Virus record (IMG/VR): IMGVR_UViG_3300025769_000070
From: a virus
Lineage: Duplodnaviria > Heunggongvirae > Uroviricota > Caudoviricetes
DNA length: 52,961 nt
Strand: one strand, 5' to 3'
Shown here: piece by piece, positions 1 to 22,305 of the stretch
Layout of the letters: every line of letters begins with the position of its first letter
How positions within the stretch are numbered: position 1 is the first letter of the stretch
The notes under the pieces: model-generated
Told to the model about the DNA's origin: nothing
Database searches by the model: none
What the model saw: the letters and a program-made list of their open reading frames with translations, nothing else
Program-made: the position numbers and the translations under genes

Positions 1-63
1 ACTGAAGTATTCACATACAGAGGAACCAATATATCCAGCGGCACCAGTAACTAAAATTTTCAT
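1..63 (-). CDS. NAD-dependent epimerase/dehydratase, 5' part only (runs off window)
   Basis: Manual translation from ATG at 63: MKILVTGAAGYIGSSVCEYFS, the Rossmann GxxGxxG start of extended SDR sugar enzymes. Confidence 0.75.
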   Translation of the reverse strand, partial: MKILVTGAAGYIGSSVCEYFS

Positions 64-100
64 AAATTATCTGTCAATCTATTTTCTAAAAGTAAATAAT

Positions 101-1246
101 TCAGTAATTAGATAACCCCTCTTGAATCGCCTTACAGATTCTCTCCATATCTTCCTCACTCAAATATTGATGGCATCCAATGTGAACACCGTTATCCCCA
201 ATCCATTCTGCGTCTGGGAAGTCTCCTAAATTATATCCCATATCGGCAAAGGCTTTGTGTTGAGTCGGGATACATCCAAAATTTTTCTTATAATGAATAT
301 TATACTTATCAAAAGTAGCCTTTACTTTATCTATGTGCCCTTTCTTTTTACAAGTAATACTAAATCCATGAGGACAATTAATATTACCTTCATCTTCTTC
401 AGAGAAAAATGCTACATTCTCAAACCCATTTGCAGCTTCTCTCATTCTTTTCATTAATTTATGACGGGTATTAAATGTATCCCAAAATAAATCAATCCCT
501 TCAAGACCGATAGAAGCCTCAAGATCATTCATCTTAGAATTTAATCCGGTTCTTTGATGATCAAAATAGATAGAATTAAAAGGACGACCATGAGAACGAG
601 TAGAGCCTAATAGATCAGCAATATAAGGATCGTTAGTAGATACATTACCACCTTCTCCACAAGCTAGTATATGGGCAATATAGTGACTAAATACCGCCAT
701 ATGACCCCAATGACCAGTATATTCATGTCTCCTAAAACCGTCATTAAATGAGGCACCATGAGCTTCGCAAGAATCCTCAATAACAATTAAGTCATATTCT
801 GACGCGATCTTACAAATCACATCCATTTCAGCCATTCTACCCATTGTATGTACAGGCATAATAGCAACAGTATTCTCATTGATAGCATCTTCAATTATAG
901 TTTCGTCGATATTTAGAGTAGACTTTCTCACATCAACAAACTTAGGTATTAATCCTGCCGCCCTGACTCCATTAGAAGTAGCAATAAATGACAAGGCTGG
1001 AACTATCACTTCGCTCTTACCACGAACCGCATTTTTTAGCTCATAAAGAGTAAGGCAAGCATTAATAACTCCATCTGTTCCAGAACTCATGGCTACTGCT
1101 CTTTCGTAGCCAAACAATTTTGCCCACTTCTTTTCAAAATCTGCCACCTTTGGACCACCAGAGGCCCAATTATTATCACAGCAATCCAAGAGATTAGCTT
1201 TTGCTACTTCTCCTATACGTAGTTCACCAAATTCAATTCGTTTCAT
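101..1246 (-). CDS. DegT/DnrJ/EryC1/StrS-fold PLP/PMP enzyme, probably an NDP-4-keto-6-deoxyhexose 3-dehydratase (ColD/E1-like)
   Basis: Family motifs SSGT, IVPALSFIAT, VIEDSCEAHG. The active-site loop FSHYIAHILACGEGG has His where aminotransferases have the Schiff-base Lys (6 residues before EGG). Confidence 0.8.
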   Translation of the reverse strand: MKRIEFGELRIGEVAKANLLDCCDNNWASGGPKVADFEKKWAKLFGYERAVAMSSGTDGVINACLTLYELKNAVRGKSEVIVPALSFIATSNGVRAAGLIPKFVDVRKSTLNIDETIIEDAINENTVAIMPVHTMGRMAEMDVICKIASEYDLIVIEDSCEAHGASFNDGFRRHEYTGHWGHMAVFSHYIAHILACGEGGNVSTNDPYIADLLGSTRSHGRPFNSIYFDHQRTGLNSKMNDLEASIGLEGIDLFWDTFNTRHKLMKRMREAANGFENVAFFSEEDEGNINCPHGFSITCKKKGHIDKVKATFDKYNIHYKKNFGCIPTQHKAFADMGYNLGDFPDAEWIGDNGVHIGCHQYLSEEDMERICKAIQEGLSNY

Positions 1247-1420
1247 ATAATCGTTCCATAGTTACAAAAAATTACACATTGACATAAAAGCTGTACTGTC
1301 GAAGATTGAAAAATAGATAGGTTCTAGATTTACGTTATCGTATTTAGTCCATGATTTACGTTCAGGATGGCTAGGACTCCCCAGCTTAAGTGATGATATC
1401 CCAACTCCTGTACAAGTGTG

Positions 1421-1609
1421 TTATGATTGATCATCATTATATTTCCTAATCACCAATCCATATAAACTACTTAATTTGCTATCACCCAACATTTTCGCCG
1501 CATCTTTAGAGAATATGAGAGGTGTTCCAATATAGAAAGATTCCATTCCTACATCGCCATCTGCATATTGCAACCACCCACGATAACCAACAAAATTTAG
1601 CTTTGACAT
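1421..1609 (-). CDS. hypothetical protein
   Basis: 62-aa ORF, co-oriented and overlapping the neighbouring stop codon. Confidence 0.5.
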   Translation of the reverse strand: MSKLNFVGYRGWLQYADGDVGMESFYIGTPLIFSKDAAKMLGDSKLSSLYGLVIRKYNDDQS

Positions 1610-3099
1610 ATCTTCCTTTTTAATTTAATATCAGTCATCTTCTTGATATTCTCAACAGCGATCTGACCGTAACGTATTTTCATGCGATTTAAAACTCCTG
1701 GATTAGTAAAATAAGCATCAAAGAAATAATCCCTGAATTCTAATACTTCCCTTGAAGTTAATGCTTCTGTACTATCAGGCACATGATCATAAGAAAGAAA
1801 ACCAAACTCTGTATACTTATCTGGAAGCTTTCTACCCTCTTGTTTAGCGGCCATGTATAATGGAGAACCCGGCAAAGCTGTAGAGCAATACACATTCATA
1901 TTTGCTAACGGTAGTTCAAACGAAAGATTCATTGTTTGCTGCATACTCTCATAAGTATCAGTTGGTAGCCCAACAATAAAATTGCCGCCTACACCAATAT
2001 CATGATCGTCAATAGCCTTAACAACTTCTCTGATATTTATTTCTTTGAATCTCCCCTTATCTATTTCTTGGCGTACATCCTGATTTGCAGACTCAATACC
2101 TAATGCTAAGTGTCTAACACCGGCTTTTCTCAAAATCTCCAAATACTGAGGCTTTGCGGTATCCACTCTACTATAAGCCCATATATTAAAGTCGAGATTA
2201 CGCTCAATAATCAACTCACATAGCTTCATAAAGTGTTTGGGTCTATACACAAACATTTCATCAGCAATTTTTAAATGCTTAACCCCTTGGTCTGCTAAGT
2301 ACTCTAATTGTGTAATAGTAAATTCTGGATTCCAGTATCGAAATACATTAAAATTAGCAGCAGTATGATTTGGATTATTATCTGTACGATTAATTTGATT
2401 GATCATACAAAAGTTACAACGACTGAAGCACCCTAAGCTAGTATAAATACTAGCAAAGGGCGATGTATCCCCTTGAAATTGTGTATGCCACACACTAGTA
2501 CGATACTTGTCTAAAGGCGGCATAATATCGTATGCAACACCTGGCAAATCTGTTTCAAGCATATCCTGTGGCACTATAGGCGAAGCGTTATTCATAACGC
2601 TCTCACCTTGTGCATTCTTCCAACAGATACCCAAAGTCCCTTTAAGAGCTTCATCTGATAGATCTGTAGCTAGTAAAGAGATAAGGGCATAAACCCCCTC
2701 ATTCGTAAACACAATGTCTATGAAGTCATGTCTATCTAATGTCTCCATTGGTAAGGCATTGACGTGAGGTCCAACAAATGCTATCTTACACTTACCATAT
2801 TCATCATTAACAAGTTTAGCAGCCGCTACGGCACCGTCCATAGCGGCAGAACTTGCATTTGGATTTTGACCAGTAGCTACAAATAGTACAATGTCCGGCT
2901 CAATATCATTGATACTACTAATAAAAGAACGTGTATCATGATTAATCTCCATATCAAAAAACTCTACAGGAAATCCTTTAGTCCTTACCGCATTAGCTAG
3001 CAATCCAGCCCAAAGATTAGGTTCCTTTGCGGAAAGATCCTTTGCTAATTCTTGATAGATACCACGAGCAGAAGGAGCGACTATTAATAATTTATTCAT
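1597..3099 (-). CDS. cobalamin-binding radical SAM protein (class B methyltransferase-like)
   Basis: N-terminal B12-binding domain (FVGPHVNALP) and CxxxCxxC (CFSRCNFC), plus IADEMF and LGIES. Start moved to ATG 3099, which overlaps the upstream stop as ATGAATAA. Confidence 0.9.
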   Translation of the reverse strand: MNKLLIVAPSARGIYQELAKDLSAKEPNLWAGLLANAVRTKGFPVEFFDMEINHDTRSFISSINDIEPDIVLFVATGQNPNASSAAMDGAVAAAKLVNDEYGKCKIAFVGPHVNALPMETLDRHDFIDIVFTNEGVYALISLLATDLSDEALKGTLGICWKNAQGESVMNNASPIVPQDMLETDLPGVAYDIMPPLDKYRTSVWHTQFQGDTSPFASIYTSLGCFSRCNFCMINQINRTDNNPNHTAANFNVFRYWNPEFTITQLEYLADQGVKHLKIADEMFVYRPKHFMKLCELIIERNLDFNIWAYSRVDTAKPQYLEILRKAGVRHLALGIESANQDVRQEIDKGRFKEINIREVVKAIDDHDIGVGGNFIVGLPTDTYESMQQTMNLSFELPLANMNVYCSTALPGSPLYMAAKQEGRKLPDKYTEFGFLSYDHVPDSTEALTSREVLEFRDYFFDAYFTNPGVLNRMKIRYGQIAVENIKKMTDIKLKRKICQS

Positions 3100-3304
3100 T
3101 TGTAATTTCTTTAATTTCAAAAGGTACTATCTCAACACCTTGATTTCTTCCACCTTTCATAGATTGTACTATTTTAGTAGCCACCCTTTTATCTATATAA
3201 AGCTTTCCACGCTTAGTCCAAAGACCAAATTTTCCGCCGACATAAAAAAGGCCAGTACTTTTTTGCCTTATTTTATATTCAATCATACAAATCTCCATGC
3301 TCAA
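3092..3304 (-). CDS. small basic phage hypothetical protein
   Basis: 70-aa ORF coupled to both neighbours. Confidence 0.55.
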   Translation of the reverse strand: MSMEICMIEYKIRQKSTGLFYVGGKFGLWTKRGKLYIDKRVATKIVQSMKGGRNQGVEIVPFEIKEITNE

Positions 3305-3797
3305 TTAACATAGTTACTCCACCATCTAATGCTTTTATATAAGCGGGGACTATCTGGTGGGGGTAAAGAAGATCTACAACATTAATATGTTCACACATAC
3401 TACGAAAAGCTTCTGCGTAATTAGCCTTATGCTGCTGTCCAGGATCAAGAGGATACTCTGAACCTACAGCAATCTTAATTATTACACATGGATCAGATTT
3501 ACCTAAACACATAATTTTCCACTTATCTAAGTGGTTTACTATTTGATTAGCGGCTAGAATGGCAAAATTCGAACGTGGATAAATACTAACTGGAATTGCT
3601 CCGGTTAAAGCAAGACCTAGACAGTAACCCATCTGGAACTCTTCTGCTACAGGAAGTTCAATCTTCTGATTAACCGGAACATCTGCTAACTGACGGGTAA
3701 TTCCTGTGCCTTTATAAGCTACTGCCTGTCCTACGAATAAGGCATTTGCTTCAGCTAGTAAAGCAACACCTTTGTTAATCTCTTCTAGATATTTCAT
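3279..3797 (-). CDS. TPP-dependent dehydrogenase E1-beta / transketolase pyrimidine-binding domain only
   Basis: FVGQAV, ELPVAEEFQMGYCLGLAL, NQIVN, GQQH. About 172 aa from ATG 3797, no C-terminal domain. Confidence 0.85.
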   Translation of the reverse strand: MKYLEEINKGVALLAEANALFVGQAVAYKGTGITRQLADVPVNQKIELPVAEEFQMGYCLGLALTGAIPVSIYPRSNFAILAANQIVNHLDKWKIMCLGKSDPCVIIKIAVGSEYPLDPGQQHKANYAEAFRSMCEHINVVDLLYPHQIVPAYIKALDGGVTMLIEHGDLYD

Positions 3798-3810
3798 ACC
3801 AATCCCTAAA

Positions 3811-4443
3811 TTAAAAGCTAACAAATTCTCCAACACCGCTGTGGGGGCCACTCAATTCATATTTATAGTAAAAAACCATACAATTAGACTTAATAGTCAA
3901 AGACTGATAGAATTCTACTAACTCTTCAGTAGTAACCTCTCCCCAAACAGACTTTGTCGGAGTGCCAACAGATTTCCCATTATCTTCCACTATAAAAGTA
4001 ATTGGTAGATTATGGGATATACTGTAAATGATAGATTCGTGAGCTATTCCTGTACGAAAAGCCATATCTCCAATAAAGCAAAATACACCACTATCTTCTT
4101 CTTTTCTAGCTATACCAGCAGCTACCCCGGTAGCTATTGGTAATATCCCACCAACGATAGCTGAAGTAAAGAAATTATATTCTGGAAAATTCATCGCCAT
4201 AGATTCGCCCTCAAGAATTCGGGCTGTTATTTTTTCTGGCGGAATACCTTTCAATAGTGCATGATAATGATTTGCCCAAGTACTAAATACATAATCGGCT
4301 TTGCCAATAGAAAGTTCTTCAAACAAATGAATTAAGATCTGTTCGTTACCATCACGTAAATGGACAGGTCCACGAATCATTCCTTTTGAATACATCCTTT
4401 TAATATTTTCCCTAAAATCAATTAAGTCTTGTTTATCTAGCAT
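3811..4443 (-). CDS. TPP-dependent dehydrogenase E1-alpha-like subunit (compact)
   Basis: GPVHL, AIVGGILPIATG and the TPP-binding GD...N motif (IGDMAF...VEDNG). Confidence 0.85.
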   Translation of the reverse strand: MLDKQDLIDFRENIKRMYSKGMIRGPVHLRDGNEQILIHLFEELSIGKADYVFSTWANHYHALLKGIPPEKITARILEGESMAMNFPEYNFFTSAIVGGILPIATGVAAGIARKEEDSGVFCFIGDMAFRTGIAHESIIYSISHNLPITFIVEDNGKSVGTPTKSVWGEVTTEELVEFYQSLTIKSNCMVFYYKYELSGPHSGVGEFVSF

Positions 4444-5382
4444 TTAATATTCCTTCCTTACATCCGGGTAATTATCACAAAACCAATCCCAAGTTTTTTT
4501 AAGACCATTATAAATGCTAGTATACTCAAAATCTGGAAATAAACTATCTACTAAAGCTTTTGATGTAGGTCTTGATCTCTGACCATTAGGTTTAGTCTCA
4601 TCCCAAACAATATTATCGTATTGGGCAATTCCCGAGAGCATCGTAACTATTTCCCGAATGGAATGTTGCTGCCGACCCGATATGATAACACGTTGGGGGA
4701 TTTTGTCAAGCGAAATCAATTGGAGGACCAACTCCGCAAGATCGTCGATGTACATAAATTCACGTAGGGAACGCCCGTCTCCCCAAACGACTAAAGGTTC
4801 TTTATTCTGAATTGCTAGGAAAAGTTTGTGAATTAAGCTAGGAACAACATGTCCGTATTCTATAGAGAACATATCGTTTTGACCAAATATATTCGAAGGA
4901 ATAACTGAACAGTAATTGTCGATACCATATTGCTTCTTTAAAGCTGTGATATGAACGTCAACCATGCGTTTGGCATATCCATAGGCGAAATTCCCGTCGT
5001 ATACGGGACCGTTGTGCATGTTTTCTTCTTTTAAAAGAGAAAGGTCATCAGGAAAAACACATACAGAACTGAATGCGATAGCCTTTGAGACATTGTGTTT
5101 AGCACAGGCCTTAAGTACATTGGCATTAATCATTAGGTTATCGTAGAGGAAGTCGGCGTGCATTGCTTTATTGCCACCAATTCCCCCTACTCTAGCACTT
5201 GTGTTGATGACACAGTCGGGTTTATAGTCCCCAATCATCTGCCAAGTCTCAGCCCAATCGGTTAGATCGGCGTCAGCTCTTGTCATAAAGATAAAGTCGT
5301 CATTAGAAGACTTAGAAGACTTAGAAGCTCTACGAATCCCATTTCCTGCTAAACCGTTGGAACCTGTTACTAAAATCTTCAT
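4444..5382 (-). CDS. GDP-L-fucose synthase family reductase/epimerase (Fcl/ColC-like)
   Basis: SARVGGIGGN, NLMINANV, SSVCVFP, YGYAKR, WGDGRSLREF. Confidence 0.88.
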   Translation of the reverse strand: MKILVTGSNGLAGNGIRRASKSSKSSNDDFIFMTRADADLTDWAETWQMIGDYKPDCVINTSARVGGIGGNKAMHADFLYDNLMINANVLKACAKHNVSKAIAFSSVCVFPDDLSLLKEENMHNGPVYDGNFAYGYAKRMVDVHITALKKQYGIDNYCSVIPSNIFGQNDMFSIEYGHVVPSLIHKLFLAIQNKEPLVVWGDGRSLREFMYIDDLAELVLQLISLDKIPQRVIISGRQQHSIREIVTMLSGIAQYDNIVWDETKPNGQRSRPTSKALVDSLFPDFEYTSIYNGLKKTWDWFCDNYPDVRKEY

Positions 5383-5400
5383 ATAATATCCTAATAAACT

Positions 5401-6162
5401 TTAGTTAAATCTTCGCCACTTTGCGGGAGATTGCTCCCAATTATTCATATCTAAAACCTGTCGTACAGGTCCAGTCTGATTGTATAGTTCTCGAAAAAGA
5501 GGAAGGTCATTAGTACTGTACGACCTATCCAAAACAGCATGGTCTGCACCAAAGTTGTTAGAGTTGCAGTGCATGACGACAGAAGGAGAATAATGCAATT
5601 TCCCACCCGCATTCTGCACACGATAAGCCAAGTCGTGGATGTTCATGTTAACATGCTCAAAGCGGCAGTCAATACCACCTAGAGCTTGAAACGTCTCAGT
5701 GTAGTACATTGGCACGGGAGCAATGAGATAATGAGTAGGAATTCCAATAAGCTGGTTGTCCCGATGCTTCCAAGATATGTAGTAGTCTTTAGTGCTACCA
5801 TTTAACTCAGAGTATGGTCCTTCTTCTGTGTAGCGAACAATAATACCATCTTCTTTTGGAGCGGCTAATAGTGTTTCAATACATTCTGCCAGTGCATTAG
5901 CCTTACAAACCCCATCGTCCGTCAACCATGTCATTAAAGTGCCTTTGGCTTGACATGCGGCTCTTTGAACACACCTAGAAGGGGAACCATAGTCTTCAAT
6001 GTAAGTGAGTCCTTCATACTCTTCCATTTTATTAGGACCAATGATAATTAGCTCATAAGTATAGTATCCAATAGAATCAGGAATACTGTCTAATAACGTA
6101 GGCAAACTGTCCGCACGAATGGTGGGAACAATTATGGTAAGGTCTGGGGTCGATAATGCCAT
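5401..6162 (-). CDS. glycosyltransferase, GT-A/GT2-like
   Basis: LTIIVPTIR, WLTDD, GGIDCRF, HDLAYR. Start moved to ATG 6162. Confidence 0.75.
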   Translation of the reverse strand: MALSTPDLTIIVPTIRADSLPTLLDSIPDSIGYYTYELIIIGPNKMEEYEGLTYIEDYGSPSRCVQRAACQAKGTLMTWLTDDGVCKANALAECIETLLAAPKEDGIIVRYTEEGPYSELNGSTKDYYISWKHRDNQLIGIPTHYLIAPVPMYYTETFQALGGIDCRFEHVNMNIHDLAYRVQNAGGKLHYSPSVVMHCNSNNFGADHAVLDRSYSTNDLPLFRELYNQTGPVRQVLDMNNWEQSPAKWRRFN

Positions 6163-6884
6163 ACCGAATCTACTTCTTTCCAATTATCTAATTTGACACG
6201 TGCAGAAAAAATTTGATCTGTTTCCCTATTAAAAAGTGGTTGGTCATCATTAATCTGTGCAAAATGTACAGGACCGTGATCACCAGAGGTTCCGGGAATA
6301 TACTTAACGGCACCAATATTAAGGCCGTTATTAATTACTCTACATCCCACCTTTTGTAATCTAGCCGCTAAATCCGTATGCCCAAAGCAAGTAACCTGAT
6401 ACTTACAATCAAACCCACCAAATTTCTCTAAGTAAGACCTTCTAACAAACGCCACATTGAAGATTTGCCACTCTGAATTAACCTTCCAGCCGCCCCCATA
6501 ACAGTGGTTAATAGAAAAATTAGTGACAGCCTCAACTCCCGCTTCGTTATAATTACCGATGACAACAGTGTCCTCAGATTCATTATAGACACAATCCATA
6601 AACTTATCGATGTCAAATGGCCCGGTCTCAAAATCATCAACCAACCATGTAACAAACTTACCTTCGGCAAGAAGAAGACCTATTTGTTGACATCTGTTAG
6701 GACTACCAAAATCCCGTACATATTTAACATTGCGGAATTCATCCACATCTGAATTATATTCAGGACCAACAAATATTACTTCAAAAGTATATTTACCTAC
6801 CGAAACGCCAATCTGTTCCACCAAAGCTTTCCAACCAGAAGTTCTGATGGATGGTATAATTATCGAAAGATCAGGCTTATTCAT
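6132..6884 (-). CDS. glycosyltransferase, GT-A/GT2-like
   Basis: LSIIIPSIR, WLVDD, GGFDCKY, HTDLAAR. Paralogue of its neighbour. Confidence 0.75.
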   Translation of the reverse strand: MNKPDLSIIIPSIRTSGWKALVEQIGVSVGKYTFEVIFVGPEYNSDVDEFRNVKYVRDFGSPNRCQQIGLLLAEGKFVTWLVDDFETGPFDIDKFMDCVYNESEDTVVIGNYNEAGVEAVTNFSINHCYGGGWKVNSEWQIFNVAFVRRSYLEKFGGFDCKYQVTCFGHTDLAARLQKVGCRVINNGLNIGAVKYIPGTSGDHGPVHFAQINDDQPLFNRETDQIFSARVKLDNWKEVDSVWHYRPQTLP

Positions 6885-7024
6885 AGCAAACAACCAATTT
6901 ATTTTCTAATTCAAACATAAAGATATCATCTAGTTTGTCCAATAATCTATTATCAATATATTTTGATTCATAAAAGAAAAACAAATCAAGTATATCTATC
7001 TGCATCTCTATGAAATGTATAGGA

Positions 7025-8026
7025 TTAATCATTCTTTGACCTCATATGTTCCACTACTTCATTTACAGAGTCTTGTAGACTAATATTAGCTTCAAACCCT
7101 AAGACTCTTTTAGCTTTTGATACATCAGGGGACCGTAATCGAACATCGTATTCATACGATGAACTACCAACGATTGATGGATTTTTTCCATGTATTGTAT
7201 TCCATACAATATAGGCGAGTTCTCTAACAGAAGTAGACACACTAGTCGAGATATTGAAATCATTATTAATACCATCTTCTGATTCTAAAGCTAATCTAAC
7301 TCCACGAGCAATATCTTTTCCGTGAGTGTAATGACGTACCTGCATACCATCACCAAGGATAGGTAGTGGATCGTCCGCATCAAGACACAAGGCTTTGTAA
7401 ACTAAATCTGGGAGTACGTGAGACATAAGCATCTTTATATTGCCGGAATATACTTTTTCTTCCCCAATAGCCTCTTCTTCTCCAACTCCTACACAGTTAA
7501 AAGGTCTAATTATAGTATAAGGCAATCCATACTGTTCATTAGCACCTTTAGCAAAATACTCAGATGATAGTTTTTGAAAACCATATGTTGAGCTTGGAGG
7601 CGGGGCTTTACTAACTTCATCTTCCGGTGTAGGATACTTATCAGTATTCTCAAAAACCATACTACTTGAAAGTACTACTATCCTTTTAAGGATATTCTCC
7701 TTATAAGATCTAATAGCTGAATCAAAAGTATTTGCTAGAATTCTCTCATTGGTTGATAATAGATCATAAGCATACTTATGAAAATAAGTAATTCCGCCAA
7801 TCATAGCTGCTCCTGCTATGATATAATCAGCGGAAATATCAGGAAAAGACTTAGCAAGATCGTGCCTTAATAATATAAATCTTTCATGCTTATCATGAGA
7901 ACGAGAAACGTTTCCGTACTTACTGTAATTATCAATCCCCGTTACATCATATCCAGCGTCCAAAAACTCATTACATAAATAACTACCTATAAATCCTTGA
8001 CTTCCAGTTATAATAATACTAGGCAT
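7025..8026 (-). CDS. NAD-dependent nucleotide-sugar epimerase/dehydratase (UDP-glucuronate decarboxylase-like)
   Basis: ITGSQGFIG, SSSMVF, YGFQK (YxxxK), RPFN. Start moved to ATG 8026, overlapping the upstream TAG. Confidence 0.85.
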   Translation of the reverse strand: MPSIIITGSQGFIGSYLCNEFLDAGYDVTGIDNYSKYGNVSRSHDKHERFILLRHDLAKSFPDISADYIIAGAAMIGGITYFHKYAYDLLSTNERILANTFDSAIRSYKENILKRIVVLSSSMVFENTDKYPTPEDEVSKAPPPSSTYGFQKLSSEYFAKGANEQYGLPYTIIRPFNCVGVGEEEAIGEEKVYSGNIKMLMSHVLPDLVYKALCLDADDPLPILGDGMQVRHYTHGKDIARGVRLALESEDGINNDFNISTSVSTSVRELAYIVWNTIHGKNPSIVGSSSYEYDVRLRSPDVSKAKRVLGFEANISLQDSVNEVVEHMRSKND

Positions 8027-8834
8027 AATATTCTCGTGTGTCCTTGAATGGTGTTGACTTATATTTTTTATTTGATTCCACTGTTGCCTGAACCATCGGC
8101 ATATCAACCCCTTGTTCTTTTGCCAGACTTAAAATAGCTGGTAAGTCTTTATTCCAGCAAATTGAACTCCATCCGCGTACATTTTCATTTACATCAAAGT
8201 ATTGGTCTGGTAGATTATTAGCTTGTAGCAATCCGCGTTTAACTGGAACATAATCTTCATTAAGAGAATTGCATAGCTCAAAGAACTCATTAGCAAATGA
8301 TACTCTAAGTGCCCCAAAGCAGTTGTTATAATATTTTATTAACTCTGCTTGAGTAATAGTACAGCATAAAGTTTTCTTAGGTAAATCTCCGTGGCAATCC
8401 CTAATTACCTGCTGACTATATTTTTCTTCAGTGCCAATAACAAGAACATTATTCAACTCGACAAAGTCTGTTACTGCTGATCTTTCTCTCAAGAATTCCG
8501 GACAGAAAACTAAATCTTGAAAACTAAAGTATTGTCCAGTATTACGCCATGCTACACAAGTTCCGGGCGGCACTGTAGATTTGATTACAACAATTCCACT
8601 GTATTTAGAATATTTTAGATCGTCTAATACTGACTTTACTATAGATGTATCACATGAACCGTCATGATTTGAAGGAGTTGGGACACAAATATATACAATA
8701 GGACAGTCTAGTAAAGAATGAAGGTCAGTCTCTAGTTTCTTATCGTGTTCATATACTTTATGGCCCTGTTTTTCGAAACCAAATTTACAGGCCGAACCGA
8801 CTATACCTTGACTACCAACTATGCCTATTTTCAT
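8019..8834 (-). CDS. UDP-glucose/GDP-mannose dehydrogenase family, lacking the C-terminal domain
   Basis: ICVPTP, IKSTVPPG, CPEFLRE, AELIKY.NN.F, catalytic C..KD (SSICWNKD). Confidence 0.85.
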   Translation of the reverse strand: MKIGIVGSQGIVGSACKFGFEKQGHKVYEHDKKLETDLHSLLDCPIVYICVPTPSNHDGSCDTSIVKSVLDDLKYSKYSGIVVIKSTVPPGTCVAWRNTGQYFSFQDLVFCPEFLRERSAVTDFVELNNVLVIGTEEKYSQQVIRDCHGDLPKKTLCCTITQAELIKYYNNCFGALRVSFANEFFELCNSLNEDYVPVKRGLLQANNLPDQYFDVNENVRGWSSICWNKDLPAILSLAKEQGVDMPMVQATVESNKKYKSTPFKDTREYYA

Positions 8835-8849
8835 TATGTGCCTTTAAAA

Positions 8850-9635
8850 TTATTTATAACCTAAATCGTTATATTCTTTTTCCTGCCCATTAAAACGAGT
8901 ATTCCATACATCTGGATATTCTTTATAATTCATAAAATATATGATATTCCTATCATTGTGATCTTGCCAGTCTCTAGTAAATATCGGTGTATCATGCCCT
9001 ATCTGAGCATTATGAATTGGTGCGTGATCACCGGAAATATTAGGCTGCCAATCAGCAGATGAAATCTCTGATTTTGAATTCCTGTAAGAAATATGATTTT
9101 GTTTTTGCAAACGAAATAATAGATCGTGTGTAGCATGATTCAGATAGTCATACTTACAATCAAATCCGCCATATGATATACATAGATCTCTAGACATTAG
9201 AAAATGAACACAAATTCCCCATGAGGGGTTTACTCCTCTATAGCGTGGATATGCGTTCCTTGCATACCAATACATATCTGGGAGTACCCTACCAGAATGA
9301 CTTTGTCCTTCTCTGTACCTCATTCCGACAATTAGATTATTATCTATATCATCTAGCTCATTAGAGATTACATGTGGAATGAATAGTGAGTCATCAACAG
9401 TGTGAAAAACATAATCCCCACCGCATTTAGATAATGCTATTTGAGCACATACGGTAGGAGATGCGAAGCTTTTTATCCAAGTCACATTAGGATTAGATAA
9501 AACAGATTCTGGCGGTTCAAAAGGTCCACACATAACCACTTCAAAATCGTGACGATCACATGAAGCTTCTAGGCTATCATACCATACTTGATGCAAATGA
9601 GTTCGTATGCTTGGCATGAATACTGATAATTTCAT
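8850..9635 (-). CDS. glycosyltransferase, GT-A/GT2-like
   Basis: LSVFMPSIR, HTVDD, GGFDCKY, HDLLFR. Confidence 0.75.
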   Translation of the reverse strand: MKLSVFMPSIRTHLHQVWYDSLEASCDRHDFEVVMCGPFEPPESVLSNPNVTWIKSFASPTVCAQIALSKCGGDYVFHTVDDSLFIPHVISNELDDIDNNLIVGMRYREGQSHSGRVLPDMYWYARNAYPRYRGVNPSWGICVHFLMSRDLCISYGGFDCKYDYLNHATHDLLFRLQKQNHISYRNSKSEISSADWQPNISGDHAPIHNAQIGHDTPIFTRDWQDHNDRNIIYFMNYKEYPDVWNTRFNGQEKEYNDLGYK

Positions 9636-9674
9636 TAATCTCTCACCGCTTCAATATGTATCAGGGAAATAATG

Positions 9675-10262
9675 CTAGGCAGTCTTTTTTGCCTCTACAT
9701 TCAAAGAAACAAGAATCCCATTACCTTTTTCTAATCTATTATGAGATAGCTTAATATCTCTATCACGAGCCGGAATATAAGCTTGAGAAAAATCGTCGCA
9801 ATATCCATGATCAACTTCCCACCAATTCCATCTGGAGACTTCATCAAATCCTGTATTCAATAAATCTTCTTTTAGTGTCTTAAAGTCCCAACCGTTGTAG
9901 TGAAAATCAAATGGATGACGTTGTGATCCATACAACAACGCAGATAATTCCCTCAAATCACCATTATAAATATACCTTTTACAAACAGCTTCAATATCTG
10001 GGACGGCTAACCTAAGAATCCCCCTAGGTTTTAAAAGTTTAAACCATCTGTTTAATGCTTTTAAAGAGTCTTCCTTTCCCAAATGTTCTAACATATGAGA
10101 ACAATAGATTAAATCCACGCTATTTTCTTTAAAAGTTTTTAACGTAAAGGCGTCGTCTACTACGTCTGGATTACATTCTTCTCTAATATCTACATTAATA
10201 AATCCAGGCAAGTGTTTATCATAGCAACCAAGATTTAGTTTTATATTTTTATCTGTTGACAT
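9675..10262 (-). CDS. class I SAM-dependent methyltransferase (type 11-like)
   Basis: LNLGC, INVDIR, DLIYCSHMLEHL, LKPRGILRL. Confidence 0.85.
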   Translation of the reverse strand: MSTDKNIKLNLGCYDKHLPGFINVDIREECNPDVVDDAFTLKTFKENSVDLIYCSHMLEHLGKEDSLKALNRWFKLLKPRGILRLAVPDIEAVCKRYIYNGDLRELSALLYGSQRHPFDFHYNGWDFKTLKEDLLNTGFDEVSRWNWWEVDHGYCDDFSQAYIPARDRDIKLSHNRLEKGNGILVSLNVEAKKTA

Positions 10263-11212
10263 TATATAGTATCAATCTTTATATTGTCGTAATTTAATAA
10301 ACCTAGATTTCCGACGAACTGATTATCCCTAATATAATCTTTCAGCCGTTCATCATTACAGAAAAAGCCATCGTACTTATCAGGATTATGCATAACAATG
10401 CCTTGACATTCTTCATAACCAAAACCAAACTCATGTCCCTTCTTTGCCAACTCAACAACTGAATCCACTAAAAAAGGATGGTCGTAGGTCGGTTTCCCCT
10501 GCATTAACCAAGAGTTGGGGTTGAAACCAGAACTAGGACCATCCATAGATTTAAGATGGGTAACAATAACATCTTTAGATAAAACAAATTTTTTCCTAAT
10601 TGCCGCACATAAAAAAGAAAATACAGATTCTGAACAAAAGCTGGCATAAATGTCCGGAAAAAGATATCCATACGCATCCATTATAGCCTTTGAAAAGATT
10701 TGGCAGTGAAGATTTATGGTTTTTCCAACAGGAATGTCGAAATTTCCATTTTTAAAAAATTGATGATTTTGAGTATGATCATAATGGTTTTCTCCCAAAT
10801 TAAACCACTGAAAATACCCACCATCTGAATCAACTTGAGCAGCGACCATTCCATAATCATCTGTGGCTAAGAGCTGGTAAAGAGAAAAGATGTCGGTCTT
10901 CTTGGTGAATTCTATGCCAGAATCTACGTAAAGATACCCCTCAAAATCGCCAAACAATTCCTTAGCCTTGAGAGCTGAGTGATTGAAGGTGACGTTGACG
11001 GGTAATGGCTCTTGAATCAGATTGAAGGTGACCGGCCTTGATACTTTTTTCTTCACATACTCCATCGCAGATCTAGAATTCATACAAGACGAAACAATAA
11101 CCTTAGAGTCAGTTATATCCTGATCTAAAATAGAATTTATTGCTTTAACATATTGCTGAGGGTGTTCACCTGAAATACCACATGTATTAAAAATAATAGC
11201 TAGCTTATTCAT
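10262..11212 (-). CDS. putative glycosyltransferase (GT-A-like)
   Basis: YVKAINSILDQD, LYVDSG; sits in the glycan cluster. Confidence 0.55.
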   Translation of the reverse strand: MNKLAIIFNTCGISGEHPQQYVKAINSILDQDITDSKVIVSSCMNSRSAMEYVKKKVSRPVTFNLIQEPLPVNVTFNHSALKAKELFGDFEGYLYVDSGIEFTKKTDIFSLYQLLATDDYGMVAAQVDSDGGYFQWFNLGENHYDHTQNHQFFKNGNFDIPVGKTINLHCQIFSKAIMDAYGYLFPDIYASFCSESVFSFLCAAIRKKFVLSKDVIVTHLKSMDGPSSGFNPNSWLMQGKPTYDHPFLVDSVVELAKKGHEFGFGYEECQGIVMHNPDKYDGFFCNDERLKDYIRDNQFVGNLGLLNYDNIKIDTI

Positions 11213-11903
11213 CTAATTTTGAAGCCTCTCTAGTGACATCGCATGTTAATAGTTCTGTAACTGAAAATTTACCATCGTGAAAAGTTCTGTGAACCATCTC
11301 TCTAGCAGTTTCATCGTCTTGCCGTAGCTCTAAAGAACTAATTGAATTATGAAAAACATGATCAATTTCTACTTCCGGAAGATCTACAATATTTTTATTA
11401 ATAGATTCCTTGTAGATCCTATAGGTTACTACATCAGATCCATGATTTCCAAATCTCTCATCCATAATAAAACCGAGTTTATGGGCGGAACTGGTCTTGA
11501 TAAAAGGAAAAGCAGCATAGTCTTGACGAACTCGGTCGATACTGTTATCATGCGTTCGTCCATACAGAAAATCCCCACCCATTTTTTCTTTTGCCAGCTT
11601 ATCCCATCCTCTATTAGTTAATACGCAGTCGTCATTAATTACTAGTATATACTCACTAGTCACAAGGGGTAAAAGAGAATTCATCTTAGTATGTAAGTTA
11701 AAACATCTTTTATCAACTACAAATTTTACATTGTCATAATTATTAAATATGTCAAAGTATTCTTTTAGGCTTTTATCATCTGAATCACAGCCAACAAGTA
11801 ATTCAAATGGTAACTCGCATGTCTCTGTTAAAGATACATACAGGTCTCGCAACATTAATGGTCTTCCACGAGAAACCAGTACAATTGATGTATTATTTTG
11901 CAT
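11205..11903 (-). CDS. glycosyltransferase, GT2-like
   Basis: SIVLVSRGRP, VGCDSDD, VINDDC. Confidence 0.7.
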   Translation of the reverse strand: MQNNTSIVLVSRGRPLMLRDLYVSLTETCELPFELLVGCDSDDKSLKEYFDIFNNYDNVKFVVDKRCFNLHTKMNSLLPLVTSEYILVINDDCVLTNRGWDKLAKEKMGGDFLYGRTHDNSIDRVRQDYAAFPFIKTSSAHKLGFIMDERFGNHGSDVVTYRIYKESINKNIVDLPEVEIDHVFHNSISSLELRQDDETAREMVHRTFHDGKFSVTELLTCDVTREASKLDE

Positions 11904-12471
11904 ATAATTCTCTTTCTACATATTCTGCAAGTATATGACCTATTACAATATGTGCTTCTTGTATTTTAGGAGTAGAGTAAGATGGTACATGAATTTTATA
12001 ATCACATTTTTCACTAAGTTCAGAAACATTAAAACCTACCAAGCAAACGGTTGGAATAAGTTTACTGATAGCGACATCACATGCTTTGATTAAATTTTTT
12101 GATTTTCCAGATGTACTTAAACAAACAAATACATCCGAACTTTGACCAAAAGCATCTAATTGACGAGAAAAAACTTCTGTGTAATCAAAGTCATTAGCTA
12201 TCGCTGTAATAACTGCGGAATTATTACTTAGACTCATAGCTGGCATAGATGGTCTGTCCAATAAGAATCTACCAACAAACTCTCCAGCAATATGGTCAGC
12301 TTGTGAGGCTGAACCACCATTGCCAGCGAATATGATTTTGCCGCCATTCCTAATTTTTATAACCAATAAATCCGCAACTTCCTGAATTGAGTTTAATACA
12401 CCATCTCTCTTAACAATCTCATTTAATAGATATGCAGAATCTTCAATTGAATTTTTAATATTCATACTCAA
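11893..12471 (-). CDS. gmhA: phosphoheptose (sedoheptulose-7-phosphate) isomerase, SIS domain
   Basis: GNGGSASQADHIAGEF, TAIAND, LSTSGKS, IQEAH. Confidence 0.92.
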   Translation of the reverse strand: MSMNIKNSIEDSAYLLNEIVKRDGVLNSIQEVADLLVIKIRNGGKIIFAGNGGSASQADHIAGEFVGRFLLDRPSMPAMSLSNNSAVITAIANDFDYTEVFSRQLDAFGQSSDVFVCLSTSGKSKNLIKACDVAISKLIPTVCLVGFNVSELSEKCDYKIHVPSYSTPKIQEAHIVIGHILAEYVERELYAK

Positions 12472-13114
12472 TTCCTTGATTAAATTCTTCAGATTTATTG
12501 ATATAAGAAGAAGCGTTTATAAAAGTAATCCCGTCACGATCTAGCCTACCGTAATTATAACAGTCTGGCTCGTCGTGAATATGTCCAAAGGCATGAATCA
12601 TTGGTTTAATTTCAAGCACTTTATTCATCAGGCTTTTACATCCAGAGTGGATATATCGTTTTCTTTTATTCTTGTCCTCACAAACATCAAGAATTCCTTT
12701 TGGAGGACCATGAGTAACTAGAATGTCACATTTAGGAACAGAATCCCATACTACCTGCATCCTGTTATGTTTCTTCATATAAGCCCAGTTATTCCCATAC
12801 GTAGGAGTATACGGAGATCCAAAAATTATAAGACCTTCTATACTGGTTGCTTCATGTATTAAGAACTTTACATTTGGGTAATTTTCACGCCTGATTAATC
12901 CTGCTTCTATCGCAGTAGAATGATTTCCCGGAACAAAGATCTTGTGTTCAACATCAAGTTTTGAAAACCATTCAAAAAATTTGTGAGATTCCCCTTCATT
13001 TATATGTGGGTTCTTATGATTAGACTCATCACCACAACAAATGATTACGTCAGTATTTGGGACGTATATTTTTTCGTGATTACCGTGAGTATCACTTATA
13101 AAAAAAAGATCCAT
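12455..13114 (-). CDS. calcineurin-like metallophosphoesterase
   Basis: ISDTHG, GD, GNH, THGPP, GHIH. Confidence 0.9.
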   Translation of the reverse strand: MDLFFISDTHGNHEKIYVPNTDVIICCGDESNHKNPHINEGESHKFFEWFSKLDVEHKIFVPGNHSTAIEAGLIRRENYPNVKFLIHEATSIEGLIIFGSPYTPTYGNNWAYMKKHNRMQVVWDSVPKCDILVTHGPPKGILDVCEDKNKRKRYIHSGCKSLMNKVLEIKPMIHAFGHIHDEPDCYNYGRLDRDGITFINASSYINKSEEFNQGIEYEY

Positions 13115-13288
13115 AGTATTCTTTTATAATAGGAGTATGATAATTATTATGAGTAATTCTATATTTATTAAAATTTTCTCTATTAAAATCATAATCTAGT
13201 ATTTTATCATTAATACTAAAAAATAAATCAACTATAACATTATCTATTTTCGACATTAAAAATTCTCATTTCTGGTAAAAGAGAAAGG

Positions 13289-13546
13289 CTATCTTCTGTA
13301 GCCATAGGGGATTGCCAAGTATTCTTGGTGGGAGAACTCCGGATTGACAAGGGGAAGATTATTATCCTCATAATATTTCCGGATAGCCTTCTCTCTGCAT
13401 TCCCGACAAGCCACCTTTAAATGCCGGACGGCATACCTATTCACTAACATGTCCGCCTCAGTGTACTTATTTACATAACATCTAGGACAAATATCCATTG
13501 TACGCAATTCGAACCAAACAAGTGAGAATTGATAGTTTCTAAACAC
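13289..13546 (-). CDS. hypothetical protein with two CxxC motifs
   Basis: CPRC and CREC; the true start may be the ATG of MDICPRC. Confidence 0.5.
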   Translation of the reverse strand: MFRNYQFSLVWFELRTMDICPRCYVNKYTEADMLVNRYAVRHLKVACRECREKAIRKYYEDNNLPLVNPEFSHQEYLAIPYGYRR

Positions 13547-13626
13547 AGTACTCTCTGTATGTCACCCCTGCCTTTATCTTTTACAAGAAAAATTACATTG
13601 TCAAGGAAGCCGACTAGGCTGACGCC

Positions 13627-13666
13627 ATTTGTCTTGGTAAACGAAGTTTACATAAACAAGACAAAT
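13627..13666. repeat. inverted repeat / hairpin
   Basis: ATTTGTCTTG-GTAAAC-GAA-GTTTAC-(ATAAA bulge)-CAAGACAAAT: 16 perfectly paired bases. Confidence 0.7.
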
Positions 13667-14027
13667 ACCCACGGTAGTGTCCATTATTTAAAACTTAAAA
13701 AAAGTAAGATAGTGGAAACGGAATCCGTGCAGAGGAAAAACACTAAAACTAAAAGACCAGCAGAGTTCTTTGTATCGGAAATTTCGCTCCGGAGTCAGCT
13801 AGAGTGGCGTTTTTCTGCTGTCTCAACGGGAGACTCTGTAAGCTGGGAGACGCCGAACCAGCCGTTCTGTTAGTATAGCTCAGTTTTGCCAAAAAAGTTA
13901 GGATTTTTTAGAAAAATTGTTCGACTTGGCGGATATAGTCTGCTAAACTTCCTCAGATGACGACTGCCGCCAAGAGATCGGGTTTCGAAAGAATGTGTCT
14001 GCGAAAGCAGAGAAGGTGGACGCAGTG

Positions 14028-17682: not shown

Positions 17683-18405
17683 ATGGAACAATTTAAAAAC
17701 GAAGTAGAACTGTTAGGGTATTATGGCAGTGATGAAGTTATCGCATGTTCCGCTTGGACAAGTACATCTCGTAATCTCACGGAAGAAAAAAGAGATAGGA
17801 TTCCGAAACTAATTAATGATCTCTGGTTGGCTGGTCACGAAACGCCCTTTGAAAAAGCCACGGTTCACTTTCTTGTTAATACTGATATAGCATCACATAT
17901 TCATTTGTTAAAGCATAGGATTTCCAGTCTGAATGCTGAGAGTGCTAGGTATAAAGAATTAAAAGAGGATAAATATTATCTGCCTGAAGATTGGGATTGT
18001 ATCAACATTAATTTAGATTGGGATAATGTTAAAGATGAACATGGGTTTCATTTAGGTGTCCCATTTAAATGTGCTGAAGTCAAAGACTGGAACGATATGC
18101 TTGGATGGTATACAAGATTGGGGAATTTTTTATACCATAGTGCCGTCAAAGATCTTGAACCAGTATTGGGACGCAAGCGAGCAAAAGAGTCAGCAAGATT
18201 CTTCAAGACCTACAACAGCCAGATTCAAGCCGATGTAATGTTCAACATGAGATCTTTTGCGAATTTCCTTAAGCTTAGAAATTCAGAACATGCACAGGTA
18301 GAGATCCGAGAAGTAGCACAAAAAATGTTAGAGCTTGTATCTAATATTGATGGCAATCCATTTCAACATACAATAACAGCTTTTAACAATAGGAGTAATT
18401 TGTGA
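17683..18405 (+). CDS. thyX: flavin-dependent thymidylate synthase
   Basis: HETPFE, HLLKHRISSLNAESARY (ThyX motif), HAQVEIREVA. Confidence 0.92.
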   Translation: MEQFKNEVELLGYYGSDEVIACSAWTSTSRNLTEEKRDRIPKLINDLWLAGHETPFEKATVHFLVNTDIASHIHLLKHRISSLNAESARYKELKEDKYYLPEDWDCININLDWDNVKDEHGFHLGVPFKCAEVKDWNDMLGWYTRLGNFLYHSAVKDLEPVLGRKRAKESARFFKTYNSQIQADVMFNMRSFANFLKLRNSEHAQVEIREVAQKMLELVSNIDGNPFQHTITAFNNRSNL

Positions 18406-18520
18406 TGAGCAATAAACCTTGTTCGTTCAGCGAATTGGCTTCGAATTTTGCGTGGACTCTTTTAACAGCTTTTTTAATTTGGTTGTCGGTAGTATCTCTA
18501 ATTATTAGAAAGATGTATTA

Positions 18521-18733
18521 ATGGCGAAAAATAAATATAAAGATCACAAATCAAAAGCTGTTACAGTTATAAGTACCCCAAGTTTTTATGGAAGTCACGC
18601 CTCAATGGTTGTTGAAGATTTGGGAGATGTGGTTGTTTGTAAGGATGATCGTGGCGAATACAAGACGCTGAAAAACAGGCTGGATAATGGACTGGCTGAC
18701 CCAAGTAGGAACAATCAAAAGAGGTTCTTATAA
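18521..18733 (+). CDS. phage hypothetical protein
   Basis: 70-aa ORF in an operon-like run. Confidence 0.6.
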   Translation: MAKNKYKDHKSKAVTVISTPSFYGSHASMVVEDLGDVVVCKDDRGEYKTLKNRLDNGLADPSRNNQKRFL

Positions 18734-18935
18734 TATGAATAAAATGAGAAATAAATTGAAGGAACATATTAGAAAAAATATAGACGATGTAAAAATATCT
18801 ATTGATATATTTAATGAAAAACCATATTATGTTAGAAACTTTATAGCCGAAAAAGGTCTAGAGTATACACCAGATCAATTAAATAAGATGATGTGTATAA
18901 TAAAAGAACTGGTAGAGGAAATTAATAATGAGTAA
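18687..18935 (+). CDS. hypothetical protein
   Basis: ORF in the run; the true start is probably just after 18733. Confidence 0.55.
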   Translation: MDWLTQVGTIKRGSYNMNKMRNKLKEHIRKNIDDVKISIDIFNEKPYYVRNFIAEKGLEYTPDQLNKMMCIIKELVEEINNE

Positions 18936-22292: not shown

Positions 22293-22305
22293 ATAGAAAA
22301 TTATT

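Follow-up and report, generated by a model that had tools for sequence, protein, structure and literature searches.

In Campylobacter jejuni capsule biosynthesis, Raushel and co-workers combined Cj1427 with the HS:5 C3-dehydratase and obtained guanosine diphosphate (GDP)-3-deoxy-4-keto-heptose in vitro (PMC10680097). E1-type protein pairs add a two-carbon unit from pyruvate to nucleoside diphosphate (NDP)-keto-sugars in aldgamycin and kibdelomycin biosynthesis (PMC12247030), and yersiniose and erwiniose are made by the same logic from a 3-deoxygenated 4-keto sugar by a different thiamine enzyme: a 3-dehydrase gives cytidine diphosphate (CDP)-3,6-dideoxy-4-keto-glucose, which is followed by a YerE-type thiamine diphosphate (ThDP) carboligase and a reductase (PMC9306805). 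Here we analyse a stretch of 52,961 nucleotides (the window) from the IMG/VR virus record IMGVR_UViG_3300025769_000070 and describe a sugar operon at its start, which most likely makes a 3-deoxy sugar with a thiamine-built carbon branch from an activated seven-carbon sugar. Our preferred reading, to which we give a probability of roughly 0.6, is that the phage has a complete route of its own to a modified heptose nucleotide, together with several cytosolic glycosyltransferases that would use it. The kinds of enzyme are known, and their combination is without a described product: a literature search returned no paper on this enzyme combination and no biochemical description of the cassette.

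The window corresponds to bases 89178–142138 of one linear virus record of 142,148 bases (IMG/VR; CheckV completeness 94%). The minus strand carries all genes from about position 13114 down to base 1, and the operon reaches from there past the window start by about 3.6 kb (to genome position 85564), spanning about 17 kb, of which the segment described in an initial annotation of this DNA (101–5382) makes up about a third. Operon genes overlap or are separated by short gaps (largest gaps, 174 and 131 bases), and it is from the shared strand and this spacing that we propose co-transcription; a scan of positions 1–14000 for promoter and terminator consensus sequences gave sites no more numerous than in shuffles and therefore gives no operon boundaries. 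Past the window start, the same strand continues from the gene for the edge short-chain dehydrogenase/reductase (SDR) into a methylthioadenosine/S-adenosylhomocysteine (MTA/SAH)-nucleosidase-like gene and genes for a GHMP kinase, a 116-aa HAD phosphatase, and a nucleotidyltransferase, these four lying at L001:6565–9325 (genome 85564–88324; L numbers denote sequence segments used in the analysis). Pfam and structure matches place the five families named in the initial annotation on the minus strand where it had located them: a DegT enzyme, a B12-domain radical S-adenosylmethionine (SAM) protein, E1-alpha-like and E1-beta-like chains, and an Fcl-like reductase. The SDR reported at the window edge begins there, and the glycosyltransferases reported upstream comprise one clear GT2 enzyme, one protein with a GT2-like fold, and three GT-A-like paralogues (Table 1).

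Table 1. Features of the operon and of the plus-strand glycosyltransferase region (window coordinates unless a locus is given; aa, amino acids; ORF, open reading frame; PMP, pyridoxamine phosphate; UDP, uridine diphosphate).
Feature	Position	Strand	Basis and remarks
Edge SDR (first 21 codons in window)	1–63, continues as L001:9300–10241	minus	Starts at base 63, MKILVTGAAGYIGS; 313 aa
His-type DegT family enzyme, predicted PMP-dependent NDP-4-keto-sugar 3-dehydratase	101–1246	minus	Pfam PF01041, 254 bits, full length
Conserved 62-aa ORF	1421–1609	minus	L004 and L005 have a 71–73% identical ORF in this position; no family match
B12-binding-domain radical SAM enzyme, about 500 aa	1597–3099 (ORF 1597–3120, likely start 3099)	minus	PF04055, 59 bits; PF02310, 38 bits
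Mini E1-beta-like Pyr-domain subunit, about 172 aa	3279–3797 (ORF 3279–3851, likely start 3797)	minus	Weak sequence matches
Mini E1-alpha-like ThDP PP-domain subunit, 210 aa	3811–4443	minus	PF00676, 56 bits
GDP-L-fucose-synthase-like (Fcl-like) SDR; putative reductase, perhaps with one epimerisation	4444–5382	minus	215 bits to human GDP-L-fucose synthase
Third paralogous GT-A-like protein	5401–6162 (up to 6183)	minus	Paralogy; PF00535, 18.8 bits, below cut-off
Second paralogous GT-A-like protein	6132–6884 (up to 6893)	minus	Paralogy; weak EpsD glycosyltransferase match
GalE/UDP-glucuronate-decarboxylase-like SDR	7025–8026	minus	PF01370, 131 bits
Short NDP-sugar dehydrogenase, N-terminal and central domains only	8019–8834	minus	PF03721, 81 bits; PF00984, 59 bits
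First paralogous GT-A-like protein, putative glycosyltransferase	8850–9635	minus	31% identical to second, 23% to third; no family above cut-off
Class I SAM methyltransferase	9675–10262	minus	PF08241, 35.6 bits; homologues in 11 related viral loci
GT-A-fold (GT2-like) putative glycosyltransferase, 316 aa	10262–11212	minus	Atlas structure search: GT2 clusters, TM 0.64–0.66
GT2 family glycosyltransferase	11205–11903	minus	PF00535, 27 bits, above cut-off
GmhA-like sedoheptulose-7-phosphate isomerase, SIS domain	11893–12465 (up to 12471)	minus	PF13580, 73 bits
Metallophosphoesterase-like gene, possibly first of operon	12455–13114	minus	PF12850, 23 bits, below cut-off
Plus-strand genes	20160–23382	plus	GT2 20160–21146; 217-aa protein; Methyltransf_24 21756–22292; GT4 22306–23382

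The operon appears to carry its own entry into heptose nucleotides. In particular, the GmhA-like protein matches the NCBIfam model TIGR00441 (gmhA) at 164 bits, below the 209 cut-off; the GHMP kinase has the heptose 7-phosphate kinase HddA as its best model, at 151 bits and likewise below the curated cut-off; and the nucleotidyltransferase is closest to RfaE/HldE domain II, at 48 bits. The presence in one operon of GmhA, an HddA-like kinase, a HAD phosphatase, and an RfaE-II-like nucleotidyltransferase argues against GDP-mannose, the precursor named in the initial annotation; the predicted precursor is an NDP-heptose. The four-protein C. jejuni heptose set (GmhA, HddA, GmhB, HddC) is not complete here: the GmhA-like, HddA-like, and HAD proteins are present, below curated cut-offs.

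Over its full length, the edge SDR shares about 50% of its residues with PDB 6VO6 and 6VO8 (E 1.5e-66), and it has only a distant likeness to deoxythymidine diphosphate (dTDP)-glucose 4,6-dehydratases. Specifically, the Thr-Asp-Glu motif of the dehydratases is absent: the NTNSGYG segment of the edge SDR aligns where dTDP-glucose 4,6-dehydratase has S-T-D-E-V-Y-G, and both the edge SDR and 6VO6 have Thr-Asn-Ser, a motif retained in 108 of the 109 edge-SDR homologues from related loci. We predict that the edge SDR is an NDP-heptose C4-dehydrogenase that retains the 6-hydroxyl, and, because it carries Thr-Asn-Ser and not the dehydratase motif, the sugar is probably a 3-deoxy sugar rather than the 3,6-dideoxy sugar first suggested. 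The lone GMD-family gene in the genome (58807–59895; L156:1063–2151, minus strand; 328 bits, below the 415 cut-off) is not part of the conserved set and lies at a distance of 30 kb from the operon, where its neighbours are small, unrelated genes. It might supply a 6-deoxy sugar or, with the Fcl-like SDR, act in a fucose-type route of its own. Near it is a 92-aa ORF (L156:190–468; genome 57934–58212, minus strand) that matches the HNH part of the model for the RNA-guided endonuclease IscB at 39 bits, far below cut-off.

The DegT enzyme is of the His type, as had been proposed: in an alignment, the Schiff-base Lys of perosamine synthetase (FSFFGNK) is His in the phage protein (FSHYIAH). Its best PDB sequence matches are aminotransferases (7b0m and 3bn1), with the dehydratases ColD and E1 next (E 1e-28 to 1e-30). 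Among DegT proteins of related loci, 56 of 60 have His at the Lys position, most have a ColD-like FSFYYAHH motif, and the gene is often directly beside that for E1-beta. The prevalence of His and the adjacency to E1-beta are consistent with a pathway in which 3-deoxygenation supplies the 4-keto sugar for a thiamine-dependent addition.

The thiamine pair comprises two unusually bare chains. The E1-alpha-like chain has 210 residues as compared with 320–365 for full-length proteins, aligns only to residues 54–210 of human E1-alpha, and ends just past a conserved PHSG loop; more than 2000 homologues are equally short. It matches the NCBIfam model for pyruvate dehydrogenase (PDH) E1-alpha at 89 bits, below cut-off, and its GDM-X26-EDN metal/diphosphate motif (G125-D126-M127 and E153-D154-N155, with Met as the third residue where the GDG consensus has Gly) and C-terminal PHSG are invariant in 12 relatives. 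The predicted structure of the E1-beta-like chain (pLDDT 94.4; 26 relatives) superimposes on the N-terminal half of PDH and branched-chain 2-oxo-acid dehydrogenase (BCKDH) E1-beta with a TM score of 0.87 and a root-mean-square deviation of 2.3 Å, covers half of the 324–338-aa targets, and lacks the E2-binding C-terminal (Transketolase_C) domain. The cofactor-activating Glu is kept: ELPVAEE aligns to DTPLNE of an archaeal E1-beta, and E47 and E52 are invariant. Searches of the phage genome yielded no Transketolase_C domain (PF02780) and no E2 core (PF00198), and no E2 core is present among the neighbours in related loci. Because both chains are truncated and the genome is without an E2 core and Transketolase_C, the pair cannot be a PDH E1, in agreement with the view that the operon does not serve central metabolism.

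There is good support for a branch built by the thiamine pair on a 4-keto sugar that has lost its 3-hydroxyl: a His-type DegT enzyme, the same SDR, and heptose genes accompany the pair in 72 viral or metagenomic and 80 bacterial loci. In the most economical reading, which draws on this gene neighbourhood and on precedent, the pair would add an acyl group, probably acetyl, to C4 of a 3-deoxy-4-keto-heptose nucleotide. To our knowledge, it would be the smallest E1-type carboligase, and such a small thiamine carboligase may be of interest for biocatalysis. Two other assignments were considered for the pair. A phosphonopyruvate or sulfopyruvate decarboxylase (ComD/ComE-like) was rejected on the domain order, PP then Pyr, and on the matches, which are to E1, 1-deoxyxylulose-5-phosphate synthase (DXS), and transketolase and not to the pyruvate-oxidase type; a mini-transketolase supplying sedoheptulose 7-phosphate was rejected on the basis that E1-beta outscores split transketolase and that the pair is tied to the DegT gene. 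In the closest relatives, at L004:4672–6379 and L005:3894–5601, there is an additional E1-alpha/E1-beta pair of full length (271 and 301 aa, including a Transketolase_C domain), and just upstream a mannose-6-phosphate-isomerase-type cupin and a DJ-1 protein; the window has none of these.

The radical SAM enzyme contains a B12-binding domain and a radical SAM domain, with both Pfam matches above cut-off (for PF02310, 32.1 bits), and its CxxxCxxC motif (CFSRCNFC; C224, C228, and C231) is invariant. Its nearest NCBIfam family is HpnJ (TIGR03471), at 136 bits and short of the 577.6 cut-off, followed by BchE and PhpK near 75 bits, all far below cut-off. In its predicted structure (pLDDT 92.5), the nearest solved fold is AprD4, followed by MgmA, OxsB, TsrM, CysS, and TokK. 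Some of these are methylases and others do not methylate, and the phage protein is 13–19% identical to them. C-methylation, the activity initially assigned to this protein, is thus one of several options and not assured, since the nearest family, HpnJ, is not a methylase and the nearest folds include non-methylating sugar enzymes. The MTA/SAH-nucleosidase-like gene of the phage would remove 5′-deoxyadenosine and S-adenosylhomocysteine, which suggests that the radical SAM enzyme is in use. Upstream of the radical SAM gene, about 160–180 bases (window 3100–3278) separate it from the E1-beta gene and hold an orphan 70-aa ORF (3092–3304), of which none of the related loci has a homologue; the closest relatives have no such gap, their E1-beta and radical SAM genes overlapping.

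Both in the phage and in many bacterial cassettes, the gene for the Fcl-like SDR lies immediately next to that for the E1-alpha-like chain. The SDR keeps Ser-x-Cys and YxxxK, while the catalytic His is replaced by Asn (FGQNDMF, as compared with FGPHDNF), at a position that varies among homologues, and it scores 189 bits against the NCBIfam Fcl model (cut-off, 500). The radical SAM gene is optional, with closely related cassettes that contain it (Herbaspirillum) and that lack it (Massilia), and the Fcl-like SDR is present in 21 of 23 fully sampled cassettes without radical SAM as compared with 29 of 58 with it, an inverse association with a Fisher p of 0.0007, uncorrected for relatedness.

Synteny across phage genomes, the check suggested with the initial annotation, shows the same families recurring together. 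Of the 72 viral or metagenomic loci with an E1-alpha-like gene, 67 have E1-beta and 53 the edge SDR, followed by radical SAM (49), DegT (44), the heptose kinase (36), and the Fcl-like SDR (28); these counts are lower bounds, as many contigs are short. The 80 bacterial loci with an E1-alpha-like gene give a similar picture (kinase, 67; DegT, 64; radical SAM, 57; edge-type SDR, 54; Fcl-like SDR, 41; GmhA, 27), and the carriers include Nitrospira, Verrucomicrobiota, Burkholderiales, Pelagibacteraceae cells, and candidate phyla. In the close phage relatives L004, L005, and L155 the order is SDR, E1-alpha, E1-beta, radical SAM, DegT, SDR, nucleosidase, kinase, HAD, nucleotidyltransferase; in Herbaspirillum lusitanum, ten adjacent genes encode radical SAM, HddA, Fcl-like SDR, E1-alpha, E1-beta, DegT, HddC, GmhA, SDR, and GmhB. 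A minimal cassette, consisting of the kinase, C4 SDR, DegT, E1 pair, and radical SAM with no further reductase, is found in 8 loci. Phage cassettes pair the HddA-type kinase with an RfaE-II-type transferase, where bacterial cassettes have the HddC guanylyltransferase instead, and add the MTA/SAH-nucleosidase-like gene, which is present in 0 of the 80 bacterial loci.

At its core, the phage operon is a copy of a bacterial gene cassette with a very wide distribution. A tree of E1-alpha proteins places the window protein in a mostly viral clade of 11 sequences, and its well-supported branches require the label to change between viral and bacterial at least seven times, so that the cassette appears to have moved between bacteria and phages at least seven times. 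Protein searches with Herbaspirillum queries gave at least 7,700 E1-alpha-like clusters and about 8,000 radical SAM clusters. E1-alpha-like proteins labelled Nitrospira are 82–83% identical to that of Herbaspirillum (L129:10001–10600), and radical SAM proteins of other bacterial groups (e.g. a Gemmatimonadaceae metagenome-assembled genome) are 76–90% identical to the Herbaspirillum enzyme; these figures suggest that the proteins are strongly constrained and that horizontal transfer has been frequent. An order-level genome search around Herbaspirillum recovered a cassette gene in 4 of 401 genomes. The abundance, conservation, and spread of the cassette imply a common cell-surface or virion sugar. 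A variant cassette is present in the marine contigs L002, L003, and L154 (44–160 kb): it is without the radical SAM gene, contains a PfkB kinase and a cytidylyltransferase-like enzyme (split HldE type), has an RmlC-like epimerase directly before E1-alpha, and encodes a DegT protein 69–74% identical to that of the phage.

Assigning steps at the homology level, we propose the following route. GmhA would isomerise sedoheptulose 7-phosphate, the HddA-like GHMP kinase would phosphorylate C1, the mini-HAD phosphatase would remove the C7 phosphate, and the RfaE-domain-II-like nucleotidyltransferase would activate the sugar; the edge SDR would then oxidise C4, leaving the 6-hydroxyl in place, and the His-type DegT enzyme would take off the 3-hydroxyl by a ColD-type PMP mechanism, giving NDP-3-deoxy-4-keto-heptose. 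The truncated E1 pair would decarboxylate a 2-oxo acid, most likely pyruvate, on ThDP and add the resulting acyl-anion equivalent to the C4 ketone, yielding a tertiary alcohol with a two-carbon keto branch and nine carbons in all. Finally, by our guess, the B12-domain radical SAM enzyme may modify the branched product and the Fcl-like SDR may reduce the remaining ketone; the MTA/SAH-nucleosidase-like protein, encoded beside the kinase, would clear radical-SAM by-products. The steps up to NDP-3-deoxy-4-keto-heptose would follow closely from the C. jejuni capsular heptose enzymes, the branching step is modelled on the conserved gene neighbourhood and on the actinomycete E1-type sugar-branching enzymes, and the two last steps, together with the acceptor, are guesses.

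Several points weigh against this route. None of the specific NCBIfam equivalog assignments reaches the curated cut-off, and the identity of PDB 6VO6, the structure that the edge SDR resembles, as C. jejuni Cj1427 (GDP-heptose C4-dehydrogenase) is provisional. The genome has no HddC-type NTP_transferase, the RfaE-domain-II-like transferase standing in its place; as HddA-type kinases belong to the alpha anomer and RfaE-II-type transferases are known for beta-heptose 1-phosphate, the activation route would be a putative hybrid, and this pairing in the phage clade makes the nucleotide and the anomer uncertain. The donor of the thiamine enzyme and the carbon attacked are inferred by analogy, the Fcl-like SDR could instead reduce C4 in competition with branching, and the distant GMD-like 4,6-dehydratase could still give 6-deoxy sugars.

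The reading put forward with the initial annotation, in which host GDP-mannose passes through a 4,6-dehydratase, DegT, the E1 pair, an Fcl/ColC-like reductase, and a C-methylating radical SAM enzyme to give a methylated C4-branched 3,6-dideoxyhexose, can draw on the sub-threshold GMD-family gene, on a reductase closest to GDP-L-fucose synthases, and on the fact that most characterised B12 radical SAM enzymes are methylases, as are the fold neighbours TokK, TsrM, CysS, and MgmA. We regard it as quite unlikely: four heptose-activation genes share the operon, heptose genes and the non-dehydratase C4 SDR accompany the cassette in most of the 152 related loci, and the GMD-like gene, besides its distance and unrelated neighbours, is absent from the complete Herbaspirillum cassette. 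It is very improbable that the E1-like pair assists central metabolism as the E1 of a pyruvate or acetoin dehydrogenase, or that it is a plain 2-oxo-acid decarboxylase unrelated to the sugar genes. Source annotations do name the homologues "pyruvate dehydrogenase E1 component alpha subunit", and the best family matches are PDH E1 models; against these stand the short alpha chain, the beta chain without its E2-binding domain, a genome with neither E2 nor Transketolase_C, and the embedding of the pair in the same sugar cassette in 152 loci of phages and many bacterial phyla.

The remaining alternatives concern the radical SAM enzyme. It might act, like AprD4, as a 1,2-diol dehydratase on the C6–C7 diol of the heptose side chain, after which the Fcl-like SDR would reduce the carbonyl; the sugar would then lose a hydroxyl by radical chemistry instead of being methylated or cyclised. 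AprD4, the paromamine 1,2-diol dehydratase, is the top structural match (E 9e-21, TM 0.64–0.68) and one of three PDB sequence matches, and in apramycin biosynthesis it works with a partner reductase. Such a function appears improbable in view of the 48 bits scored by the NCBIfam AprD4 model as against 136 for HpnJ, an identity to AprD4 of 15–16%, similar TM scores to methylases, and the absence of the Fcl-like SDR from half of the cassettes that contain radical SAM. A special case of the preferred heptose route would lead to a carbocycle of the caryose type: after branching at C4, the HpnJ-like enzyme would abstract a hydrogen from C7 and close a C7–C8 bond onto the branch carbonyl, giving a pyranose fused to a cyclopentane, with the C4–C8 bond made by the thiamine enzyme and the C2 unit derived from pyruvate. 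Caryose is a 4,8-cyclo-3,9-dideoxy-nonose of the lipopolysaccharide of Trinickia (Burkholderia) caryophylli, its origin is stated to be unknown, and radical SAM enzymes (HpnJ, PtmC, and calditol synthase) have been proposed to convert sugars into cyclopentitol rings (PMC9092360). Atom count and oxidation state fit (heptose C1–C7 plus acetyl C8–C9, 3-deoxy, 6-hydroxyl kept, C9 methyl), and, judged from the published structure (PMC9092360), only a redox-neutral C7–C8 closure is missing; HpnJ leads the other NCBIfam families by about 60 bits, the minimal cassette has no further reductase, and the Fcl-like SDR is scarcer where radical SAM is present. This version is nevertheless unlikely, as the HpnJ match is far below the family cut-off, the nearest solved folds include true methylases, the association with the Fcl-like SDR takes no account of relatedness, and no Trinickia caryophylli protein is among the best 120 matches to the Herbaspirillum E1-alpha and radical SAM proteins; a search of a plasmid collection for a T. 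caryophylli cassette likewise gave no match. If it holds, the ability to make such sugars would extend beyond one plant pathogen to many bacterial phyla and to aquatic phages, and a long-open biosynthetic question becomes directly testable.

The remaining operon genes concern sugar supply and transfer. The short NDP-sugar dehydrogenase matches TIGR03026 at 147 bits, below cut-off, and the best solved relatives of the adjacent GalE-like SDR are UDP-glucose 4-epimerase and UDP-glucuronate decarboxylases; together they look like a second, UDP-glucuronate-type sugar branch. The short dehydrogenase form (271–280 aa), without the C-terminal nucleotide-sugar-binding domain, is shared by several phage contigs, e.g. 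L155:5713–6555 (280 aa), and is therefore not a local truncation. The 316-aa GT-A-fold protein matches no Pfam family above cut-off. The metallophosphoesterase-like gene overlaps the start of GmhA and has no homologue in the 72 viral or metagenomic and 80 bacterial related loci. On the plus strand, matches to PF00535 (71 bits), PF13578 (68 bits), and PF00534 (50 bits) and a PHROG glycosyltransferase match identify genes that possibly belong to the same glycan machinery, a link suggested by proximity. Just before them, at 17683–19893, are genes for ThyX thymidylate synthase and for a protein with weak similarity to nucleoside 2-deoxyribosyltransferase. We saw no hydroxymethyl-pyrimidine pathway, and the gene content speaks neither for nor against glycosylation of the DNA.

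In all, seven putative glycosyltransferases are present, five in the operon and two on the plus strand. No cluster protein has more than one hydrophobic segment, and the cluster contains no polytopic membrane protein, flippase, or polymerase. Because glycosyltransferases are present without membrane, flippase, or polymerase genes, a soluble acceptor is favoured, and we lean toward virion proteins as the more likely acceptor of the sugar. A lytic-type phage of 142 kb would in this way devote about 12% of its genome to a private glycan.

The genome is that of an uncultured aquatic phage, and its gene content identifies it as a tailed phage: the window encodes ribonucleotide reductase, a DnaB-type helicase, primase, polymerase fragments with HNH elements, and an exonuclease, and tail-fibre proteins are encoded elsewhere in the genome. 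The Terminase_6N and Gp23 models matched nothing in the genome, so that phage identity rests on these other genes. It appears to have no close relative among GenBank phages: megablast with window bases 1–8000 gave no match, and a protein search with the radical SAM enzyme gave one weak match only. Rfam and tRNA scans of the window found nothing.

Compared with known systems, the predicted route shares with the C. jejuni capsular GDP-heptose pathways the entry from sedoheptulose 7-phosphate, a GHMP-type heptose kinase, a His-type 3-dehydratase dependent on PMP or pyridoxal phosphate (PLP), and an Fcl-family SDR (PMC10680097). Unlike the phage, those pathways have no thiamine or radical SAM enzyme; in the phage, the HddC guanylyltransferase is replaced by an RfaE-II-like transferase and the HAD protein has 116 residues. 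E1-type sugar-branching pairs include AviB1/AviB2 of avilamycin biosynthesis. The actinomycete C-branching enzymes, in particular the aldgamycin pair and kibdelomycin KbDH-alpha/beta, are two-chain ThDP enzymes without E2 or E3, encoded among nucleotide-sugar genes, and are expected to transfer a C2 unit from pyruvate to a keto-sugar to give a tertiary alcohol (PMC12247030), as is likewise expected of the phage pair. The phage chains differ in being reduced to the PP domain alone (210 aa) and the Pyr domain alone (about 172 aa), and their predicted substrate is a heptose nucleotide for a glycan, as opposed to a deoxyhexose for an antibiotic. In the yersiniose, erwiniose, and caryophyllose route, too, a 3-deoxygenated 4-keto sugar nucleotide accepts a ThDP-bound acyl anion and a reductase follows (PMC9306805), but the YerE-type enzymes are single-chain proteins of the decarboxylase superfamily, not of the E1 type, and the sugar is a CDP-hexose that is also 6-deoxygenated.

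With the B12 radical SAM enzymes HpnJ (hopanoid cyclitol ether), AprD4, OxsB, TokK, TsrM, CysS, and MgmA, the phage enzyme shares an N-terminal Rossmann B12-type domain and a barrel with CxxxCxxC, while being the equivalog of none of them. Viruses with their own glycan synthesis include mycobacteriophages, with virion glycosylation, and giant viruses, with nucleotide-sugar pathways; the combination of heptose, ThDP-branch, and radical SAM chemistry is not among the virus sugar chemistries known to us. What the phage has in common with these viruses is the pairing of virus-borne sugar-nucleotide enzymes with soluble glycosyltransferases.

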